The translations under genes were made by a program, and so were the position numbers. Positions 2,638-64,000 of a stretch of 64,000 nt of DNA are shown piece after piece (position 1 is the stretch's first letter; every line of letters starts with the position of its first letter). A model generated the notes under the pieces. That model made no database searches. It was not told the DNA's origin and saw nothing but the letters and a program-made list of their open reading frames with translations. The stretch spans positions 23,880 through 87,879 of IMG/VR virus record IMGVR_UViG_3300011989_000010, one strand, 5' to 3'. This DNA is from a virus. Taxonomy: Duplodnaviria > Caudoviricetes.

Positions 2638-3066
2638 ATGAAAAGATTAAATAAAGAATACATTTTAGATTTTTCTAATGATATTGACGTTAGATTTGGC
2701 TCAGTGAACAAGGATGACCCAAAAGTAATTTATCTTTCAGGTAAGTGTTGGGTATCACCTAAATTTGAAGACGATTATAGCAATATTTTTGAGACAATTA
2801 AAAGGGACTTTAAACATTCGATTTCAACGTTCCTTTTTGGTAACAATTATTATTCAAGCAGATTTATTTTAGACTTTGACATTAATTGTGATGGGCTGAA
2901 AATGAATCAGAAAAAATTCTTGTCATTTAATATATTTTTTAGACAGGCAAATCAGCCACCTTGTAAATTAACTAATGAATCTTTATCAGATAATTTTTCA
3001 AGTTTGGTTAATTCTTTACTGAGGTCTTTAAGAGAAAATGAATTTTCGGTTTCTAAACATAAATAA
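2638..3066 (+). CDS. Hypothetical protein
   Basis: 142-aa ORF, co-oriented with neighbours, AT-rich leader. Confidence 0.7.
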   Translation: MKRLNKEYILDFSNDIDVRFGSVNKDDPKVIYLSGKCWVSPKFEDDYSNIFETIKRDFKHSISTFLFGNNYYSSRFILDFDINCDGLKMNQKKFLSFNIFFRQANQPPCKLTNESLSDNFSSLVNSLLRSLRENEFSVSKHK

Positions 3067-3092
3067 GAACTATTTATAAGGAAAAATACATT

Positions 3093-3533
3093 ATGAAAAG
3101 GATTATAAGATTAACCGAAAGTGACTTGCATAGAATCATTGAAAATTCTATTAATACCGTATTAAATGAAATAGGTGATACAGACAGTGGTAAGGATGCC
3201 ATTGCACAGGTACAGGGTAGAGCTGCTGCAAGAATAATGAAAGACCCTTCACATGCTGCCAAATATCAGAAAACATATAATGATGCTGAAAACAGACTTA
3301 AAGGTCAGAAAAACGGAAAAGGCTTCCAAAAAGGTTTTCAGAAAGGTATAAAAGAGGCAAAAAATGATGATATTGAAAACGGCATAGATAATGACTTTGA
3401 CTTATATAATGATGACGGGACATATGATTATACTGAAACACCTGATTATGATTCATTGTATGGGGATATGAGTGATGATGATATGCAGCAGTATATGGAT
3501 GATGCAGATGCTGACAGATTTATAAACTTATAG
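3093..3533 (+). CDS. Small protein with MKRIIRLTESDLHRIIENS leader and acidic tail (candidate internal head protein)
   Basis: Leader nearly identical to that of 19927..20262. TATTTAT at 3071-3077. The TAG stop spans the IS left junction (T|AG). Confidence 0.75.
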   Translation: MKRIIRLTESDLHRIIENSINTVLNEIGDTDSGKDAIAQVQGRAAARIMKDPSHAAKYQKTYNDAENRLKGQKNGKGFQKGFQKGIKEAKNDDIENGIDNDFDLYNDDGTYDYTETPDYDSLYGDMSDDDMQQYMDDADADRFINL

Positions 3534-5975: not shown

Positions 5976-7508
5976 ATGAAGAATAATAAAATAAGAAGCA
6001 AAGTTGTAAAGGAATCTTTATTGGACTATAACAATCTTGCTAATACATTGAAAGAGAATACAACTGCTGCCGTTAGGGATTTACTTTCCGAGGCAGTACG
6101 TGATACATATTCTAAGATTCTTACCGAGGATGACGAGGATAAGGATTATGATGTAGAGGAAGTGGATGATACTGATTCTGGAACGAGTGGCGATGCAGAC
6201 GCAACAGTAGATGATACTGACGCAGAAGGCTCTGACGATGTGGATGCTGTGGATGTTGATGACACTGAAGACAGTGGTGACACCGAAGATGTTGATGACA
6301 CTGAGGACGACGGTGAAATGACTGACGAAGTACCTGCTGAAGGTGAGGGCGAAGACGGTGATGAATGGTCTCAATTCGACAAGTACAAGGTTTCAGATGA
6401 CGAGTATGACTTCTCAAATGCGGAAGACGATGAAATCGTAAAAGTTTACAAGTTATTGAACAATGATGACCAAGTAATCGTTAATAAGAGTGATGATAAT
6501 AAGGTCAACATTAAGGATAACGAAACAGGCGCTGAGTATCTTATTGACTTAGGTGACGATGGCGCATCAGAAGATTTCGGTGGTGCTGAAGATGATTTTG
6601 GAGGTGATGACACTGGTTTCGATGATGAAGATGACTTTGATAACGAAGAAGATAACGATATGAATGAATCTAGAATTTATGAAATAGCACTTGATGAATA
6701 TGATTCTCATGTTGGCTATACTGATAATTATCAGAGCAAGGACGTATTAGACACAAAGGGCGTTCCTGTCGCAGACGACAAGGACAGTAACGATTGGGGT
6801 TCTAAGGGTCTTAAGGATAGAGGCAACAGAAAGCCTTGGTCAGGAAAGAGAAATAACGCAAGCGAAAATCAGCCATTTACTGCTAGTAAGGGTAAGACTG
6901 TAGAAGAGGAAGATGACATCGAAGGCGGCGATGCAGAAGCAGCAATCTCAGAGAGTGCTGGCGAGTGTGGCGCTAAGATGGGTGCTAAACGTAGAATGAG
7001 AGGTACTAAGTCTCACAATCCAAATACAGGTGATGATGAAATCCCTTATGTTTCAAGCCATGCTTCAGTAGCAGGTGAATATAAGGGTAGTAAGGCTGAT
7101 AAGTCTTATGGAAGTAAGGTTGAGTCAGTTATGCGTAAGGCTAACAAGATTTTCGCAGAAAACAAAGAACTTAAATCTGCACTTGGCAAATTTAAGAACG
7201 TACTCGAAGAGGCTGCGGTTACGAACGTCAACCTTGGCCAGATTATCAAGTTGATTTCTGAAAACACAACATCTCAGAATGAGAAGAAGGAAATCATCGC
7301 ACGATTTGGCAAAGAGGCTAAGACAGTTGAGCAGTCTAAGAACTTGTACGAATCAATCTCAAGAGATTTGCAGAAGAAGAATACCATGAATCTTGACGAA
7401 GGAAAGCAGTACGGAGTTGAGGGTTCTAAGCAAATCAACGAGACACAAATCTATCAGTCAAAGGATTTACTTGATTCACTTGACTTAATGCATAGACTTT
7501 GTAAGTAA
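5976..7508 (+). CDS. gp22: Prohead scaffold/core protein (gp22-like position), very acidic
   Basis: Directly upstream of the capsid gene. D/E-rich, many (I/L)xE sites, coiled-coil C-terminus. TATTTAT at 5935-5941. Confidence 0.75.
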   Translation: MKNNKIRSKVVKESLLDYNNLANTLKENTTAAVRDLLSEAVRDTYSKILTEDDEDKDYDVEEVDDTDSGTSGDADATVDDTDAEGSDDVDAVDVDDTEDSGDTEDVDDTEDDGEMTDEVPAEGEGEDGDEWSQFDKYKVSDDEYDFSNAEDDEIVKVYKLLNNDDQVIVNKSDDNKVNIKDNETGAEYLIDLGDDGASEDFGGAEDDFGGDDTGFDDEDDFDNEEDNDMNESRIYEIALDEYDSHVGYTDNYQSKDVLDTKGVPVADDKDSNDWGSKGLKDRGNRKPWSGKRNNASENQPFTASKGKTVEEEDDIEGGDAEAAISESAGECGAKMGAKRRMRGTKSHNPNTGDDEIPYVSSHASVAGEYKGSKADKSYGSKVESVMRKANKIFAENKELKSALGKFKNVLEEAAVTNVNLGQIIKLISENTTSQNEKKEIIARFGKEAKTVEQSKNLYESISRDLQKKNTMNLDEGKQYGVEGSKQINETQIYQSKDLLDSLDLMHRLCK

Positions 7509-7554
7509 AACGAAAAAATAAATTAAAATTTTTATTAATAAAAATCTTTTATAA

Positions 7555-9537
7555 ATGAGAGAATTTTTAACTAGCGGTCAGGTCGGCAATATCGAGTTGA
7601 ACGCACAAAAGAAGATACGTGAGGACATTCAGAATCGTTGGGACCAGTTAGGTTTCACTGAGGGTCTTGATGGTACAATCAAGGAGAATGTTGCTACATT
7701 GTATGAAAATGAGGCTAAGCACTTGATTTATGAGGCTACTGCTTCTGATAACTCTGGCTCTTTCGAGACTGTAGTTTTCCCAATTATCCGTCGTGTATTC
7801 AGCAAGTTACTTGCTAACGACATTGTATCAGTTCAGGCTATGAACCTTCCTGTTGGTAAGTTGTTCTTCATCCTCCCTGTTACATCAGAGCGTGAGTGGG
7901 AAGTTCCTGCTGATGGCGCGGCTGCCGCAGCTGCTGGTGACATCGTAGATGGTACTACAGGTCGTCATAAGGGTCTTATGGGCTATGACCGTACTAACCG
8001 TAACAAGGAAGGTCGTGTTGAGCCACGTTACTATCTTCCTGATGAGACGGTTGCTGACTTGGAGAAGGATAAGTGGTATGTACCACAGTTGAATCAGACA
8101 CCTGCTGATGCTACTACTTACGATGCAGCATTGAAAGCAGCTAAGGATGCAGGTCTTGGTGTAACTGCTCTTCGTCAGGATGGTCCTGAGGTTACTCAGT
8201 ACTTCGAGAAGAGTCTTTACGACTTGTTCTACAACGACTTCCTTTATGATAATTCTAAGGGTAAGGTAACTATCAAGGTAGGTCAGGCTTCTCTTGCTAA
8301 GTTGACTCCACGTGGTATGGAGGATTTCGCAGCAGGTGATACAGTACAGGTTAACGGTTTCGATGGTACTGTTCGTAACGTAATCCTTAAGGTTTCAGGT
8401 TTCTCTTCATTCAACGCTTCTAAGTTGACTGGTCCTGATGGTAACGAGATGGACACTGAAGGTTTCTTGGCTTCATTGAAGGTTATTACAACTGAAGCTA
8501 TTGCATCTACAGGTGTTGAGGGTGCAAGTGGTGTTACTACTGCATCGTTCAAGAAGTATGAAGCAGTTCCTTTCCGTGTTGCTACTCAGAAATATGGCAA
8601 GGGTATCGTAGAGTATGGTAATGCTTGCGATGCTGAAGGTAATATGTATCTTGAACTTGACCTTGCTAAACCAGTTGTTCAGCAGGCAGGTACAATTGAT
8701 GGTTATGTAGGTGTTGCACCTACTGCTATCACAGATGCATCAATGTTCAAGGTTGCTTGGGCACAGTATGACTCACTTGAGTTGGAGACTGAGATTGGTG
8801 AGGTTTCATTCAAGTTGGATTCAGTAACTGTCTCAGTTGAGGAGCGTAAGTTACGTGCTACATGGTCTCCAGAGTTGGCACAGGATGTTAGCGCATTCCA
8901 CAACATTGATGCAGAGGCAGAGTTGACTGCTATTCTTTCTGAGCAGATTGCTGCTGAGATTGACCGTGAGATTCTTCGTGACCTTCGTAAGGGTGCACCT
9001 TGGCAGGCTCGTTGGGATGTAAATGGTTGGAGACGTATGGCAGCTTTCTCTACTAACTACACTCAGAAGGATTGGAATCAGGAGTTATTCACAAAGATTA
9101 ATCAGATTTCTGCTCAAATCCACAAGGCTACTCTTCGTGGTGGTGCTAACTTCATCGTAGTATCTTCAGAGATTTCTGCATTGTTCGATAACCTTGAGTA
9201 CTTCCACGTAAGTGATGCATCTGCTGAGTCAGATCAGTACAATATGGGTATTGAGAAGATTGGTTCTTTGAATGGTCGTTATCAGGTATATCGTGACCCG
9301 TATTCTCCACACTGGTCAATCATCATTGGTCACAAGGGTAAGTCACTTCTTGATACAGGTTACATCTATGCACCGTATGTACCAATGCAGTTGACTCCTA
9401 CAATGTACAACCCATTCAACTTTGCTCCTGTAAAAGGCATTATGACCAGGTACGCTAAGAAGATGGTGAACAACAGATATTATGGTCACATTCGTGTCGA
9501 TGGTTTGGTCCATTGGGATATTGCTGAACTTAGATAA
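7555..9537 (+). CDS. gp23: Major capsid protein, T4 gp23-like, with a large internal insertion
   Basis: FPIIRRVFSKLLANDIVSVQAM, RKLRATWSPELAQDVSAFHNIDAEAELTAILSEQIAAEIDREIL, YAPYVPMQLTP, GIMTRYA. Confidence 0.97.
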   Translation: MREFLTSGQVGNIELNAQKKIREDIQNRWDQLGFTEGLDGTIKENVATLYENEAKHLIYEATASDNSGSFETVVFPIIRRVFSKLLANDIVSVQAMNLPVGKLFFILPVTSEREWEVPADGAAAAAAGDIVDGTTGRHKGLMGYDRTNRNKEGRVEPRYYLPDETVADLEKDKWYVPQLNQTPADATTYDAALKAAKDAGLGVTALRQDGPEVTQYFEKSLYDLFYNDFLYDNSKGKVTIKVGQASLAKLTPRGMEDFAAGDTVQVNGFDGTVRNVILKVSGFSSFNASKLTGPDGNEMDTEGFLASLKVITTEAIASTGVEGASGVTTASFKKYEAVPFRVATQKYGKGIVEYGNACDAEGNMYLELDLAKPVVQQAGTIDGYVGVAPTAITDASMFKVAWAQYDSLELETEIGEVSFKLDSVTVSVEERKLRATWSPELAQDVSAFHNIDAEAELTAILSEQIAAEIDREILRDLRKGAPWQARWDVNGWRRMAAFSTNYTQKDWNQELFTKINQISAQIHKATLRGGANFIVVSSEISALFDNLEYFHVSDASAESDQYNMGIEKIGSLNGRYQVYRDPYSPHWSIIIGHKGKSLLDTGYIYAPYVPMQLTPTMYNPFNFAPVKGIMTRYAKKMVNNRYYGHIRVDGLVHWDIAELR

Positions 9538-9689: not shown

Positions 9690-11399
9690 ATGGGAAAGAA
9701 AGTAACAATAAATGAAAATGACATAATTAATGATTACAAATCATCAGTTATAAGTGTTGACTCCTTAGCTAAAAAATATCATGTTGGCAAAATAAGAATC
9801 AGGAAAATACTATCTGATAATAATGTTGAAAGGAGGAAACGTGGAGGACAGGAAAAAGGTTTTAATTTTAAACCTGATGATTGGAAAATTGAAAAGTATC
9901 CAAAAATAAACGGAAAACACTACATTGCTTATTCCAAAGATGGAAAATATTATACAAATGATTATATGAATCAGGCAGGTAAGCTTACTTCATACATTAA
10001 AACATTGGGTATTGAAATTCCGACATTGTATGATAGAAGAAAATATTATATGATGAATGGAAATTATTGGTGGGAGCAGTGGTTTGATATTAAGTTAATT
10101 GACGATAAACCTGTTAAAAAATGTCCATATTGTGATTGGGAAACAACTGATATTGAGAACAAAAGTGGAATGTTTATGCAGCATTTAATAAAAGAGCATA
10201 AACTAACCATTGAAGAATATCTTAAAAAACACCCTGAAGATAATGATTATTTTCAAAAACAAGCTAAAATTATAGCTAAAAATAAACTATTAATTGATGA
10301 TGGGAATTATGTCAAATGCCCCATTTGTGGTAAAAAAATGATGAGAATGACTTATTGGCATATTAAAAATCATGGACTTACCATAACTGAATTTAAATAT
10401 AAATTTCCTGATTTTAAAATGGAATCAGAATTAATGGAGGAAAAAGATAGGGAAAACCAAAAATTAAGCAATTTAGCTGAGCGAAAAACAGAAACCGTAT
10501 CACTTGCTGAAAAAGAAATATCAGATTTTTTAGAAAAAAATAAAATTAATATTGTTAAGAATGACAGAAAAATATTAGATGGGAAAGAAATTGACATTTT
10601 AATTCCTGACTATAACATTGGTATTGAGTATGATGGGCTAAGATATCATTGCGAGGGGGTATCTAACAAAACCTCTGATAGTCATTTGTTTAAGACAAAA
10701 AAAGCCGCCGAAAAAGGAATCAATTTAATACACATTTTTGAAGATGAATATCAAATTCATAAAGAATTAGTTTTTGATAAAATTAAGCAAATATTGCATT
10801 TAAATAATAATATTAAAATAGGTGCAAGAAAATGCAAAATAAAAGAAATTAATTCAGATGCAGCTAAAGATTTTTTAAATGCTTTCCATTTACAGGGGTT
10901 TGCCAACTCATCAGTTTATATAGGTGCTTTTTATAACAATGAACTTATTGGTGTAATGACTTTTAAAAAGAATGGCTTGGACAAAACTGAACAGTGGGAA
11001 TTGAATAGATTTGCTACCAATTTTAAATATAATTGTCAAGGACTTGGTAGTAAATTATTTAAATATTTCATTAATTTAAAAAATCCATATACTGTATCAA
11101 GTTTTGCTGATAGAAGATGGACTCTTAACCCATTTAATAATTTATATATAAATTTAGGCTTTAAATTCAGTGGCTTTACAAGACCAAGTTATACATATTT
11201 TAAATTAAAATGGGGTAAAGGCGAAGATAGATATAAAAGATTTCATAAGATGGATTTCAGAAAGCATATACTTCTTAAAAAGCATTCTGAATTATCTTCT
11301 GATATGACTGAATATGAAATGGCTAAAACATTAGGCTATGGCAGAATATGGGATTGTGGTATGCTAAAATATGTTTGGTATAATGAAAACATAAATTAA
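9690..11399 (+). CDS. Free-standing endonuclease-like protein: HTH, zinc fingers, PD-(D/E)XK-type domain and a C-terminal GNAT-like domain
   Basis: CPYC...H...H and CPICGK...H zinc fingers. EIDILIPDYNIGIEYDGLRYH nuclease motif. C-terminal ELIGVMTF...WELNRF...SFADRRW...WDCG. Own promoter and terminator, lower GC than the capsid gene. Confidence 0.75.
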   Translation: MGKKVTINENDIINDYKSSVISVDSLAKKYHVGKIRIRKILSDNNVERRKRGGQEKGFNFKPDDWKIEKYPKINGKHYIAYSKDGKYYTNDYMNQAGKLTSYIKTLGIEIPTLYDRRKYYMMNGNYWWEQWFDIKLIDDKPVKKCPYCDWETTDIENKSGMFMQHLIKEHKLTIEEYLKKHPEDNDYFQKQAKIIAKNKLLIDDGNYVKCPICGKKMMRMTYWHIKNHGLTITEFKYKFPDFKMESELMEEKDRENQKLSNLAERKTETVSLAEKEISDFLEKNKINIVKNDRKILDGKEIDILIPDYNIGIEYDGLRYHCEGVSNKTSDSHLFKTKKAAEKGINLIHIFEDEYQIHKELVFDKIKQILHLNNNIKIGARKCKIKEINSDAAKDFLNAFHLQGFANSSVYIGAFYNNELIGVMTFKKNGLDKTEQWELNRFATNFKYNCQGLGSKLFKYFINLKNPYTVSSFADRRWTLNPFNNLYINLGFKFSGFTRPSYTYFKLKWGKGEDRYKRFHKMDFRKHILLKKHSELSSDMTEYEMAKTLGYGRIWDCGMLKYVWYNENIN

Positions 11400-15017: not shown

Positions 15018-15063
15018 AAAACGTATGAATGCCAAATAGCAAAGGCAATCATACGTTTTTTTT
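15018..15063. terminator. Hairpin between convergent genes (bidirectional terminator, possibly also a DGR cis hairpin)
   Basis: AAAACGTATGA (15018-15028) pairs with TCATACGTTTT (15049-15059), with A and T runs on either side. Confidence 0.7.
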
Positions 15064-15100
15064 TGTATTAATTAAAAATAAATAAAAAGATAAATAAATC

Positions 15101-15832
15101 CTAACCAAGCACGCCACGCACGGAGAACCCGTAGTAACGGTAGTTGTAGTAAAGGTCGACAAAGCTTGAACGGAAGCCGAGGTACTGCCCGTAATAGACA
15201 TTGCCCGTACTCAGCATAGAGGACCAAACGACACCGCTGCTACCACTATAGGCAAGTGAACCACTCGAAGCGTAACCTGCAGCAGGAATAAAGATAGATT
15301 TTGAAGTATCAGTCTTTGAAGTAAACAATCTACCATTTACTCCATCCAGTTTCGTCCACGTGCTTGTAGTGCCATTAAGAAGCTCCTGAATTTGTGTAGG
15401 TGTAGGCATTTTCCAAGTACCTCCCATATTAACGTATGCAGCATCGTCCTCTAATTCTAATCTTGCACCAGTGGTTTTGTACTTGCTAAAGTTTGAAGAA
15501 CTTCCATCAATGCTCCATTTGTAATTATCCCAGTCGAACTGTTTATCCTTTCCTACTTGTTCAGCTGTGTAACCAGTTGTGTCTCCCCATTGGAAGTAAA
15601 GACCTGTATCACTTGGCTTAGATGCCCCCACATTCATTGTAGCCCAAAGTGTTCCACTTGTAAGCCCTAAATCTACATAATCGTGCCCATTAGCTTTTGG
15701 TTTTGGTGGGTAGTTATAGTATACGCTCTCCTTGTCGTCACTAAACGACACATTCGGCTTCAAGTATTTACTCTTGTCATCTCTATATGCCAAATAGTTC
15801 GTTTCAGTGTCAAATAATTTTAAATATTCCAT
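15101..15832 (-). CDS. C-type-lectin-fold (DUF1566/Fib_succ_major-like) protein, probable DGR target
   Basis: GHDYVDLGLTSGTLWATMNVGA...GLYFQWGD...W(K)MPT...FIPAAG...WSS...YRYYGFSVRGVLG, the usual architecture of Bacteroidota DGR targets. Confidence 0.85.
   Translation of the reverse strand: MEYLKLFDTETNYLAYRDDKSKYLKPNVSFSDDKESVYYNYPPKPKANGHDYVDLGLTSGTLWATMNVGASKPSDTGLYFQWGDTTGYTAEQVGKDKQFDWDNYKWSIDGSSSNFSKYKTTGARLELEDDAAYVNMGGTWKMPTPTQIQELLNGTTSTWTKLDGVNGRLFTSKTDTSKSIFIPAAGYASSGSLAYSGSSGVVWSSMLSTGNVYYGQYLGFRSSFVDLYYNYRYYGFSVRGVLG
15110..15274 (-). other. Putative DGR variable region (VR)
   Basis: The last ~55 codons are about 53% GC by hand count in an AT-rich genome and rich in NNC/NNT codons (TAC, AGC, GGC, GTC, GAC) where a template would carry AAC/AAT. 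Confidence 0.75.
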
Positions 15833-16631: not shown

Positions 16632-16793
16632 ATTTTTTATTTTTATATAAAAAATATTCAAAATACTTGTTATTTAAATAAAAAATGCAGCCATTTCTGA
16701 CTGCATTATAAATAATTAAATTAAAAAAAAAGGTAAATAAATAAATCCTTCAATAAATATATCAAGTTGTACTTAATTAAATACAAATATAGG

Positions 16794-17542
16794 TTAGCCA
16801 ATTACACCACGAATAGAACAGCCAAGACAGCGGCCTACGTCACTTGCCAAAGATTCCGATCTGTTACAATAAAGAACTAAACCCCTATTATCATTACGGC
16901 TACTTAGCATAGATGAAAAAATTATTCCTAATTTTGAAATTTTTATAACCGAACCTTCAGAAGCCTGACCTGCCATAGGAATGAATATAAACTTTGACGT
17001 ATCCTTTTTGGAAGTGAATGCTATACCGCTTACTCCATCAGATGTTGTCAAAGCAGTTGTGGTATTGTCAATAAGTTCTTGACATTGGCCAGAAGTTGGC
17101 ATATGCCAATCTCCACCCATATTTACGTGAGCCGCATCATCTTCCAATTCCAACGTTGTTAGACCATTAAATTTATACTTTCTAAAGTAATTATCTAGAG
17201 TAGGCTGACCCCACTTATAATCTCTATAATTATCAGCAAACTTCTTTTGTCCTTCACCTGTTCCAACTTGTTCGGCTGTGTATCCAGAAGTATCTCCCCA
17301 TTGGAAGTATAATCCATAATCTTCTGGCTTTGAAGCACCCACGTTCATTGTTGCCCAAAGCGTTCCACTTGGAAGTCCTAAATCTACATAATCGTATCCA
17401 TTATTATTTATTGGGGGGGGGTAAAGTTGTAGTACACGTTTCCGTTGTCATCAGAAAGTGATACATTTGGCTTCAGATAGTTACTACTATCTCTGTAAGC
17501 CACATAATCATTTTCAGTACTAAATTCTTTTAAGTAAATCAT
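16794..17542 (-). pseudogene. Paralogous C-type-lectin gene frameshifted at a poly-C tract (possible phase variation)
   Basis: The 5' part MIYLKEFSTENDY...YYNFTPPQ* and the 3' part NGYDYVDLGLPSGTLWATMNVG...SIRGVIG are in different frames. C10 (or C7) instead of C9 joins them; C10 gives a 249-aa homologue of 15101..15832. Confidence 0.85.
17413..17421 (-). repeat. G9 (sense C9) homopolymer at the frameshift point
   Basis: Plus strand reads TT-GGGGGGGGG-TAAAG. Confidence 0.9.
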
Positions 17543-43136: not shown

Positions 43137-45182
43137 ATGAAGGGATTGTATTTTTACAAACTTGTATCTCCATATTCTGAAGATGTAACAAAAAATTGCA
43201 GATTGACAGTCAATGAAATAGATGGCAACTTTTTGAATCTTAAGGATGAGGACATTAAAAGCGCTGAATTCGATTGTGAAGCGAAAGTCTTAACTCTCAC
43301 AAGAAATAACGGCGAGACGCTGCAAGCCGATATGTCTTGTGCTTGGCAAGGGTTGACATCAAATTTCGATGTAACATTCGAAGATAGCGGTTGCACTGGT
43401 TCAGGTGTTCTTAAGTTCACTTGGGATGAAGATGGGGAGACATACGAGTCAACAATTAGAGGACTCGTAACAAAAGACAACATTGGTAATTATGTTATGA
43501 CTGAAGCAATTACTGATGGAACTATCATAGGTAATGGTAGAGATGGTAATCCATTGTCTCTCAACCCCGTTGAACAAACTGGTCATTATAGACCAGTTAT
43601 TGACTTGAAGGATATGACCAATGGTGAATCATTGCCAACAAATAATGAACTTGGAGATAGATACCTTACATTAGAAAAAATTGATGACTATGGTTATCTT
43701 TACAATATAGATGGTGTCAAAGAGTTAGAGGCTAAACTTTCAAATGGTTGGAGAATTCCTACTAAGACAGATTGGGACAATTTGCTTAATGCTATTGAAC
43801 CTTGCGCTTATAGAAGCCATCAATTACCCGATTGCCACGTAGAACTTGGTAAGATTGCAGGTAAAGAACTGAAGACTGCAAATGATTGGCCTTTTGACCC
43901 TGCTACAAGCGGAATTACTGACGATACTGCTTATCTTTTTGATGAGGTAGTACCTTCAGAGAAGCCTATCAATACTAAGGGTACAAATAAATACGGATTC
44001 TCAGCATTACCTGGTGGTTTTGCATACGAGAAGGGTGGTCAGATTCAGAAATTTGGTGAATATGCAAGTTTCTGGACAAACACACAGACTATGCCTGATG
44101 TACAAAGTGATTATTATACTAAAACTTTTATGTACAATAAGGCTGGCGTATGGCAGTCAGCAGAATGTCCATTTGATTATCGTTCAGTAAGACTTGTAAA
44201 GGATTATAACGGTAGCAATGCAAGGGAAAGCGCTTACATTGGTGGAAAGTATTATGAAGAACTTTTACTTCCTTCAATGAATTCTGAGCACGGCTTTGCT
44301 ATTTGGACTAAGACAAATGTTGATCTTGAGGTTTCTGACAAAAATCATATTAAGTATAGAGACTATAATGACTCTTACAATACAAAGTCTCATAACGTTT
44401 ATGTGATTAATGAGTGGACAGGTGAAGATTGGGAGAGAAAGATTATGCCTGAAGGTGGCGTAATTGTCATTAACAATGAGCAGTGTAGAGAGCTTAATGG
44501 TAAAGATTTTATATATGATGTAGATACTGAGTTCAGATTGGTTAAAGGTGAATTAAAGGCTACAGATGAACTTGTTTTTGGTAAAGTATGGGAAAAGCTT
44601 AATCCTATTATTTTAAACATCAATAATAAGATTTCTGCTGAGACTGAAGCGAGAATTGCTGCTGACGAGGCTTTATCTGGTGCAATAGAAACTGAGAAAC
44701 AGCAACGAATTGCTACTGACGAAGCGTTATCTGGCGCTATCGAAACTGAGACTGAAGAGAGAATTTCTGCTGACAATGCTTTATCTGGCGCTATCGAAAC
44801 TGAGACTGAAGAGAGAATTTCTGCTGACAATGCTTTATCTGGCGCTATTGAAACTGAGAAGCAGGAACGAATTGCTGCTGACGAAGCATTATCAGGTGCT
44901 ATCGAAACTGAGACTGAAGCTAGAATTGCAGCTGATGAGGCTTTATCTGGTGCCATAGAAACTGAGAAGCAGGAACGAATTACTGCTGATGAGGTATTAT
45001 CAGATGCTATTGACGCAGAAGAAAATCGTGCAAAGGCTGAAGAAAAGAGAATTGAAGGTTTAATTCATAAGGGCGGTCTTCGTACTATTCCAGCTAATGG
45101 TAGTGTAGTAATTCCTTCTTATGATGGTAATGAAGAAAACAATATCACCCTTAATTTCGATGGAAATTTCGGTGAGATATAA
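43137..45182 (+). CDS. Tail-associated protein with an internal Fib_succ_major-type lectin domain and coiled-coil repeats
   Basis: GYLYN...GWRIPTKTDWDNL...NKYGFSALPGG...ASFWT...YRSVRLVKD, followed by 18-aa repeats. Confidence 0.75.
   Translation: MKGLYFYKLVSPYSEDVTKNCRLTVNEIDGNFLNLKDEDIKSAEFDCEAKVLTLTRNNGETLQADMSCAWQGLTSNFDVTFEDSGCTGSGVLKFTWDEDGETYESTIRGLVTKDNIGNYVMTEAITDGTIIGNGRDGNPLSLNPVEQTGHYRPVIDLKDMTNGESLPTNNELGDRYLTLEKIDDYGYLYNIDGVKELEAKLSNGWRIPTKTDWDNLLNAIEPCAYRSHQLPDCHVELGKIAGKELKTANDWPFDPATSGITDDTAYLFDEVVPSEKPINTKGTNKYGFSALPGGFAYEKGGQIQKFGEYASFWTNTQTMPDVQSDYYTKTFMYNKAGVWQSAECPFDYRSVRLVKDYNGSNARESAYIGGKYYEELLLPSMNSEHGFAIWTKTNVDLEVSDKNHIKYRDYNDSYNTKSHNVYVINEWTGEDWERKIMPEGGVIVINNEQCRELNGKDFIYDVDTEFRLVKGELKATDELVFGKVWEKLNPIILNINNKISAETEARIAADEALSGAIETEKQQRIATDEALSGAIETETEERISADNALSGAIETETEERISADNALSGAIETEKQERIAADEALSGAIETETEARIAADEALSGAIETEKQERITADEVLSDAIDAEENRAKAEEKRIEGLIHKGGLRTIPANGSVVIPSYDGNEENNITLNFDGNFGEI
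44632..45020 (+). repeat. 54-nt (18-aa) tandem coding repeat, about 7 copies
   Basis: Unit type RIAADEALSGAIETE(T/K)(E/Q)E. Confidence 0.92.
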
Positions 45183-63916: not shown

Positions 63917-64000
63917 ATGATATACTTAAAAGAATTTAACACGGAAAGTGATTATATTGCTTATAGAGATGGCAGTAATTATCAAAAGCCGAATGTGTCG
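63917..64000 (+). CDS. 5' end of a third member of the lectin-gene leader family (truncated by the window)
   Basis: MIYLKEFNTESDYIAYRDGSNYQKPNVS closely matches the start of the gene at 17542. TATTTAT at 63890-63896. Confidence 0.75.
   Translation, partial: MIYLKEFNTESDYIAYRDGSNYQKPNVS

Follow-up and report, generated by a model that had tools for sequence, protein, structure and literature searches.

A likely DGR variable region at the end of a lectin-fold gene in a huge gut/rumen phage

The 3' end of gene P0001 in a huge gut/rumen phage very probably contains the variable region (VR) of a diversity-generating retroelement (DGR), encoding the ligand-binding C-terminus of a small lectin-fold protein (15093-15289, complementary strand). 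The window analysed here, 64,000 nucleotides long, corresponds to bases 23880-87879 of an 87.9-kb IMG/VR contig for which CheckV estimates a completeness of ~25%, so that the whole phage genome would measure roughly 350 kb. An earlier note on this DNA had read the region as a DGR target, a reading that is now supported by comparison with relatives, rather than directly, and by target-side signatures. We propose that a template repeat (TR) RNA, encoded at another site in this phage's genome, would be copied by a DGR reverse transcriptase (RT) that misreads template adenines, and that the cDNA would replace the variable tract (15131-15274), being primed or bounded at an IMH-like 3' segment that acts as the 3' boundary. 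About 20 AAY-templated codons would be randomised and the scaffold codons retained, with the TR and RT sitting in the unassembled three quarters of the genome. We infer that this phage has a TR and RT of its own, that the system is currently active, and that its products have a role in adhesion. DGRs, lectin-fold targets and remote targets are all already known; what is new here is a contig with at least five paralogous genes, including two intact VRs of two template types and one VR that has decayed.

The target gene and the edges of its variable region

P0001 (15101-15832, complementary strand) is an open reading frame whose 243-aa translation consists of a conserved N-terminal segment of ~45 aa followed by a domain with a predicted C-type-lectin fold (residues ~46-243). 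There are 3194 close homologues, and the family profile matches 33,993 cluster representatives. P0001 is identical on all three contigs that carry it, and the gene is also present in ENA assembly ERZ964372 (run SRR948137, PRJNA214227). Searches of Pfam, NCBIfam and PHROGs gave zero matches and a profile search of the PDB gave none; neither PF07603 (Lcl_C/DUF1566) nor PF09603 (Fib_succ_major) matches P0001 above the Pfam gathering score, and PF07603 has weak matches in 24 of 43 close relatives (best E 1.2e-4). AF2 run on 43 close homologues gave a pLDDT of 40, and an alignment of 96 sequences was used instead, giving a model with a pLDDT of 91. Aligned to PDB representatives with VIA-align, the model has as its top match the C-terminal domain of Legionella Lcl (8q4e, Z 7.6), followed by the Bd2740 C-terminal domain (7.4), Treponema TvpA (6.9), Bordetella phage Mtd (6.7) and Thermus TaqVP (6.4), with formylglycine-generating-enzyme-like proteins and dozens of C-type lectin domains ranking lower; these Z values (5-7.6 overall) are middling for that search, and the weight lies on the consistency of the match list, not on a single score. 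Foldseek against the PDB returned no clear match, and the top match in the viral library BFVD is a Fib_succ_major phage protein (prob 0.99). The model, and its matches to the Lcl C-terminal domain, TvpA, Mtd and TaqVP in particular, supports a C-type-lectin fold that is Fib_succ_major/Lcl_C-like at the fold level, in agreement with what the earlier note had said of the gene. With this predicted fold, P0001 fits the DUF1566/Fib_succ_major class of DGR targets (Wu et al. 2018, PMC5758913).

The convergent neighbour of P0001 (12062-14992, forward strand) encodes a 976-aa repeat-rich, tail-fibre-like protein related to PHROG families of tail and tail-fibre proteins (E as low as 1.6e-23), and P0067, a homologue discussed below, lies upstream of sheath and tube genes. 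These neighbourhoods hint, faintly, that proteins of the P0001 type are binding modules that may be carried on the virion. A 681-aa repeat-bearing protein is encoded elsewhere in the window (43137-45182, forward strand) and contains, at 43620-44201, a genuine Fib_succ_major domain whose score of 70 bits against PF09603 exceeds the cut-off. It is the only gene on the contig that PF09603 matches, has tandem 54-nt repeats at 44638-45069 and lacks a GC-rich, A-poor tract; it is a second, non-diversified lectin-like module of the phage.

VR1, the variable region of P0001, spans codons 187-243. The last 171 coding nucleotides are 52.6% GC with a coding-strand A fraction of 0.15, against 39.6% GC and 0.35 A in the rest of the gene and 33.7% GC in the contig overall; the jump to about 53% GC reported in the earlier note is thus real, and the codons quoted there match the sequence. 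Comparison with two other copies (P0007 and L106), together with composition, places the hypervariable tract at 15131-15274 (complementary strand; codons 187-234). Its edges can be defined against a 340-kb relative that carries a complete DGR (described below). On the 5' side, the invariant segment ATT CCT GCT GCA GGT (15275-15289, complementary strand) aligns with the 5' end of the relative's TR, and the homology between the relative's TR and VRs starts at the corresponding segment. On the 3' side there is an invariant GC-rich, IMH-like segment (15093-15130, complementary strand; ...TCCGTGCGTGGCGTGCTTGGTTAG GATTTATT) that includes the stop codon and 8 nt beyond it, and is identical or nearly so in paralog 2 (see below), in every VR of the relative and in the relative's TR. 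The final variable codon is directly upstream of the IMH-like segment at TCCGTGCGTGGCGTG, so that this segment bounds the variable tract, and the protein ends in ...YYGFSVRGVLG followed by the stop. TCCGTGCGTGGCGTG together with ~20 nt is common to VR1, to VR2 of paralog 2, to all of the relative's VRs and to its TR; the TAGGATTTATT flank, together with the invariant 3' segment, is common to the VRs of both phages. The relative's VRs and TR differ at the first base past the stop, with TAGG in the former and TAGA in the latter.

Approximately 41 nt past the P0001 stop, between the convergent genes, is an inverted repeat with an 11 + 4 bp stem (15018-15059). Its DNA fold has an energy of -16.2 kcal/mol (z = -6.2) and none of 200 shuffled sequences folds as well, in keeping with the hairpin reported previously at about 40 nt downstream. 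It is flanked by an A-run and a T-run, and a simple terminator scan made no call at this position (the fold has a 10-nt loop and the scan a limit of 8). The hairpin may act as a terminator, as the target-site hairpin of a DGR, or in both roles; we rejected it as proof of a DGR, because with its position between convergent genes and its A-run and T-run it may simply be a terminator. The relative's VRs have a different hairpin at a similar distance downstream.

Paralogs and frozen third positions

A tblastn search of the 87.9-kb contig with P0001 identifies at least five paralogs, counting P0001 itself as paralog 1 with its intact VR1. Paralog 2 (contig 7252-7986, complementary strand) lies 15.9 kb before the window and is intact, with a VR of 55% GC. 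Paralog 3 (window 16794-17542, complementary strand) has a frameshift at a run of nine C residues (17413-17421) and a decayed C-terminal region whose composition has come to resemble that of the genome. The remaining two are cut off by the ends of the contig: one at contig 1-54 (complementary strand, outside the window), and one at window 63917-64000 (forward strand), of which the first 28 codons are present and which is syntenic with P0067 in L104, the gene that precedes those for sheath and tube. Since the contig has at least five such genes, dispersed along its length, we regard P0001 as a remote member of a multi-target set.

The last 171 nt of paralog 3 have a GC fraction of 0.38 and an A fraction of 0.26, compared to 0.53-0.55 and 0.15-0.16 in paralogs 1 and 2. 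The frameshift sits between the N-terminal segment and the lectin domain and may point to a phase switch or a dead gene, or be an error in sequencing; the former VR now contains K, E and I codons, and the gene serves as an internal control for the appearance of a VR that is no longer serviced. Both ends of the contig fall within the conserved N-terminal region of the paralogs, and the assembly probably broke on this repeated gene family.

The third codon positions of VR1 and VR2 behave quite differently from those of the genes that carry them. VR1 and its counterpart in P0007, an ortholog from another sample (Logan, SRR21376889), differ over the 57 VR codons at 15, 13 and 3 sites in codon positions 1, 2 and 3, whereas the 186 codons upstream differ at 19, 19 and 55 (third positions 3/57 versus 55/186, Fisher p = 6.5e-5); in each of the three third-position differences within the VR, one of the two bases is A. 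L106 (IMG/VR 3300011989) contains a third VR1-type copy, which shares the scaffold and gives the same picture. Likewise, VR2 and P0067 differ at 11, 6 and 1 sites over 57 VR codons, compared to 29, 31 and 75 over 180 upstream codons (1/57 versus 75/180 at third positions, p = 2.7e-10). As a control, VRs under a single TR in the relative differ from one another at 0-2 third positions. Re-templating is therefore indicated, since the third positions of the VRs are nearly frozen while positions 1 and 2 differ heavily. VR1 has the target-side marks of a DGR: it is C-terminal on the lectin fold, is poor in A, and has a frozen scaffold and an IMH-like end.

No homogenisation is seen between VR1 and VR2: they differ at 13 of 57 third positions, and of their 45 differences 22 are at sites where the relative's TR has a base other than A. 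The possibility that one A-rich TR serves both was considered and rejected, as each type is self-consistent (among three VR1-type and two VR2-type copies) where the types differ. Because the copies agree within each type at those sites, two distinct templates must exist; and because paralogs 1 and 2 follow different template types, two TRs are to be expected in the unassembled part of the genome, or else one of the VRs goes unserviced.

Templates and reverse transcriptases in related phages

A BLAST search with the VR and an adenine-tolerant ungapped scan over the whole 87.9-kb contig found no TR and matched only paralog 2. No PF00078 RT is present on this contig, on nine related IMG/VR fragments or in the complete phage Lak-A1, and tblastn with the RT and accessory protein of the 340-kb relative gave no match on the contig. 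The earlier statement that the window lacks both TR and RT is correct and extends to the entire contig, and such an absence is expected for a remote target because the contig is only ~25% complete. Searches of IMG/VR and JGI metagenomes with scaffold and TR-specific patterns did not find a TR or RT for this phage, and a scan of IMG/VR with the IMH-like pattern found three VRs and zero TRs. The RT relatives P0359, P0272 and P0273 are associated with TRs of other types or of the TRa type, none of which fits VR1 or VR2 by adenine differences alone.

The relative is a 340,224-bp ENA contig (ERZ4903345 contig_54249), which carries P0040, a protein 73% identical to that of P0001. Its DGR cassette, in locus L015, has the order target gene P0040, a 178-aa accessory gene (L015:10843-11379), TR (L015:11498-11690) and a 397-aa RT of the DGR type. 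The RT matches PF00078 (1.5e-14), has the motifs IGNLTSQ and YVDD, and has as its best PDB match the 328-aa RT 8ub7 (E 2.7e-28), which we take to be the bRT of BPP-1, compared to 6e-11 for group II intron RTs. The accessory protein has no Pfam match and is not confirmed as an Avd. In the frame of the VRs, this TR translates as ...NVWSSMLNTDNVNNGQNLNFNSGNVNLNNNNRYNGLSVRGVVG / ...VWSSMLNTDNVNNGQNLNFNSGNVNLNNNNRYNGLSVRGVVG, and the template translation predicted from VR1 in the earlier note is nearly identical to it. A search of the kind recommended there, for a template copy beside an RT, returns only paralog 2 in the 87.9-kb contig; the relative's own VRs do have such a TR.

The single TR of L015 matches at least five VRs on the same contig, and in these five every mismatch (21-28 in each) is at a TR adenine. 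Two of these are in the flanking targets adjacent to the TR, P0040 and P0082 (24 of 24 mismatches each); another is in a member of a tandemly arrayed set of 205-aa genes ~20 kb from the TR (28 of 28), one is in P0069, ~64 kb away (21 of 21), and one is in P0093, ~163 kb away and next to PhoH (21 of 21). P0093 is the positional counterpart of P0001, and PhoH is 68% identical between the two phages. Three more VRs of the tandem array (L020; three of the four seen) have 25-28 mismatches at adenines and 5-12 at other bases, and P0050, the ClpB-adjacent paralog that is the relative's counterpart of paralog 2, has departed from the template, with an indel and mismatches at bases other than A. TR-VR-RT cassettes belonging to this family are also present in L039, L094, L108 and L114/L115, and TR-VR pairs that differ by adenines alone occur in L039, L094, L108 and L114 as well. 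The L114 and L115 TRs match the L015 TR at all but 4 of 187 positions while the RTs are 90% identical, so the templates evolve slowly. The relative's TR has 53 adenines in 187 nt; 28 of the 48 mismatches between it and VR1 are at those adenines (20 are not), as are 28 of the 42 mismatches with VR2, and because of the remaining non-A mismatches the templates of our phage must differ from that of the relative.

These pairs bear on whether a retroelement is needed at all. Lectin-fold binding loops are often under diversifying selection, and VR1 and VR2 differ from each other at many positions that are not adenine in the relative's TR, so that ordinary fast-evolving loops shaped by positive selection and recombination among paralogs might be invoked. 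Selection, however, leaves unexplained the jump to 53% GC and a loss of A confined to the coding strand, the near-zero synonymous change beside saturated first and second positions, and the TR-VR pairs with strictly A-only mismatches found among relatives in this gene family, and we consider such an origin very improbable.

The earlier note had placed the template in trans, elsewhere in either the phage or its host. The first option is favoured, as relatives carry TR and RT within phage contigs beside paralogs of the same gene, and the second is hard to credit. The idea that a TR and RT in the host bacterium act on the phage gene during infection has in its favour that both are absent from the contig and that DGR cDNA is able to reach distant targets in trans (Wu et al. 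2018, PMC5758913); it is set against the location of these elements in the relatives, against RT relatives on contigs of 170-413 kb (judged by size alone), and against an IMH-like pattern that is unmatched in 185,579 GTDB species genomes.

The main alternative to a serviced VR1 is an orphan or fossil region that was written by a DGR at an earlier time, or recombined in from a DGR-bearing relative, and that, with no matching TR or RT now, is frozen and will decay. The lack of TR and RT in 87.9 kb would follow, paralog 3 shows that VRs in this same window do decay, VR1 and VR2 are not co-templated, and in the relative both P0050 and three of the four tandem VRs of L020 have departed from the template. 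VR1, though, is still A-poor and GC-rich and retains its IMH-like end and 3' flank. Its scaffold synonymous sites are near-identical to those of copies from two other samples while the third positions upstream are ~30% diverged, and because of this contrast it must have been rewritten or acquired recently. As three quarters of the genome is unseen and the relative's counterpart gene lies 163 kb from its RT, we judge an orphan state unlikely, and favour a VR1 served by a template elsewhere in the phage genome. More broadly, the balance tilts slightly towards a clade of huge gut/rumen phages in which one RT and at least two TRs rewrite in trans 5-10 or more lectin-fold genes spread over more than 160 kb, tandem arrays included.

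Several other features of these genomes were noted. Distant homologues of the P0001 protein are present in Lak-A1, a complete 541-kb phage lacking an RT, and the protein family can thus exist without a DGR; one of these homologues (L013, Lak-A1 9735-10265) has two in-frame TAG codons, presumably reflecting the recoding of stop codons that has been reported in Lak phages. In the relative, the accessory gene also occurs in a second copy (73% identical), after which comes a second TR-like repeat (L017:2373-3220; repeat 3030-3220). This repeat has a 5' flank as in the true TR and no RT within 540 nt; its 5' half has scaffold features of VR2 (in a base-by-base reading by eye), its 3' half seems to have been mutated, and the flank beyond it has homology to the 3' flank of paralog 3 (window 16720-16793). 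A conserved element of ~70 nt (…GATTTATTCATCCTTCCAACCAAACC…) follows the stop codon in the relative's VRs (L015:10727-10830, L017:2257-2360, L019:2224-2330) and is missing from the TR. It ends in a hairpin whose inner stem has a possibly compensatory change in L019, and is a candidate target-recognition element or terminator. Homologues of the accessory protein follow target genes in several loci that have no RT close by (L073, L078, L040 and L057), and IS605/IS607-type TnpB genes are located a few kb from the DGR cassette in L015 (16430-17560) and L114 (4235-5368).

Relation to known systems

To our knowledge, DGRs are the only natural systems of targeted protein hypermutation in prokaryotes and their viruses, and those of phages are generally portrayed as compact cassettes whose one or two targets lie alongside. 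In the relative, one machinery serves numerous lectin-fold paralogs, at distances of up to 163 kb from the template, in a genome of more than 340 kb; its template has 18 AAY codons, and if each can give any of 15 amino acids, simple arithmetic yields ~10^21 variants per gene. Orphan VRs such as VR1 are real DGR targets that are invisible to RT-anchored surveys, and VRs can be recognised from the target side alone by the GC jump, the loss of A, the frozen scaffold and the IMH-like end. The questions as to how the cDNA finds many distant targets, for which the shared IMH-like end and 3' flank are candidates, and why a huge phage should diversify a whole battery of small binding proteins are raised by these findings. 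We found no description of a DGR in huge phages in the full-text literature searched, jumbo-phage genomics papers included.

The organization has clear parallels with the BPP-1 DGR (mtd-avd-TR-brt). As in that 42-kb phage, the VR is at the C-terminus of a protein with a predicted C-type-lectin fold (the model aligns to Mtd with a Z of 6.7, a middling value), the TR is rich in AAY codons and mutagenesis is restricted to adenines (both as seen in the relatives), the invariant 3' end is GC-rich and IMH-like with an inverted repeat downstream, and the relative's RT has the IGNLTSQ and YVDD motifs and 8ub7 as its best PDB match. BPP-1, however, has a single target, which lies beside its RT; the targets in the present case are numerous, small and paralogous, and are dispersed over more than 160 kb of a genome of at least 340 kb. 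The 178-aa accessory protein without a Pfam match, its identity as Avd not confirmed, the position of the hairpin ~40 nt from the stop and a 243-aa target lacking trimeric fibre domains are further differences.

In having one TR and several non-adjacent paralogous lectin-fold genes, the relative resembles the Treponema denticola TvpA DGR with its seven remote targets. Short targets with little beyond the lectin domain are typical of the TvpA and Legionella LdtA class, and further points of resemblance are the weak PF07603 matches in 24 of 43 relatives of P0001 and the alignment of the model with TvpA (Z 6.9) and the Legionella Lcl C-terminal domain (Z 7.6). TvpA and LdtA belong to the CLec2 class (DUF1566/DUF823/Fib_succ_major) in category 'd' (Wu et al. 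2018, PMC5758913). Unlike these cellular elements, the remote targets here are inside a phage genome and have no lipoprotein signal, and two template types coexist.

The largest number of non-adjacent targets recorded is the seven of Treponema, and no targets more than 100 kb away are expected for phage-associated DGRs (Wu et al. 2018, PMC5758913). If the dispersed target set proposed here is real, it contradicts this published expectation of no remote targets for phage DGRs. The DGRs of gut phages, such as those of Hankyphage, the crAss-like phages and the MGV survey, are similar in that a receptor-binding-type domain of a gut or rumen phage is diversified, but they are detected as an RT with an adjacent VR. 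Metagenome surveys of that design miss remote targets (Roux et al. 2021, PMC8144416), and if the proposed arrangement is correct, RT-centred surveys miss most targets, and two template types would coexist in this phage.
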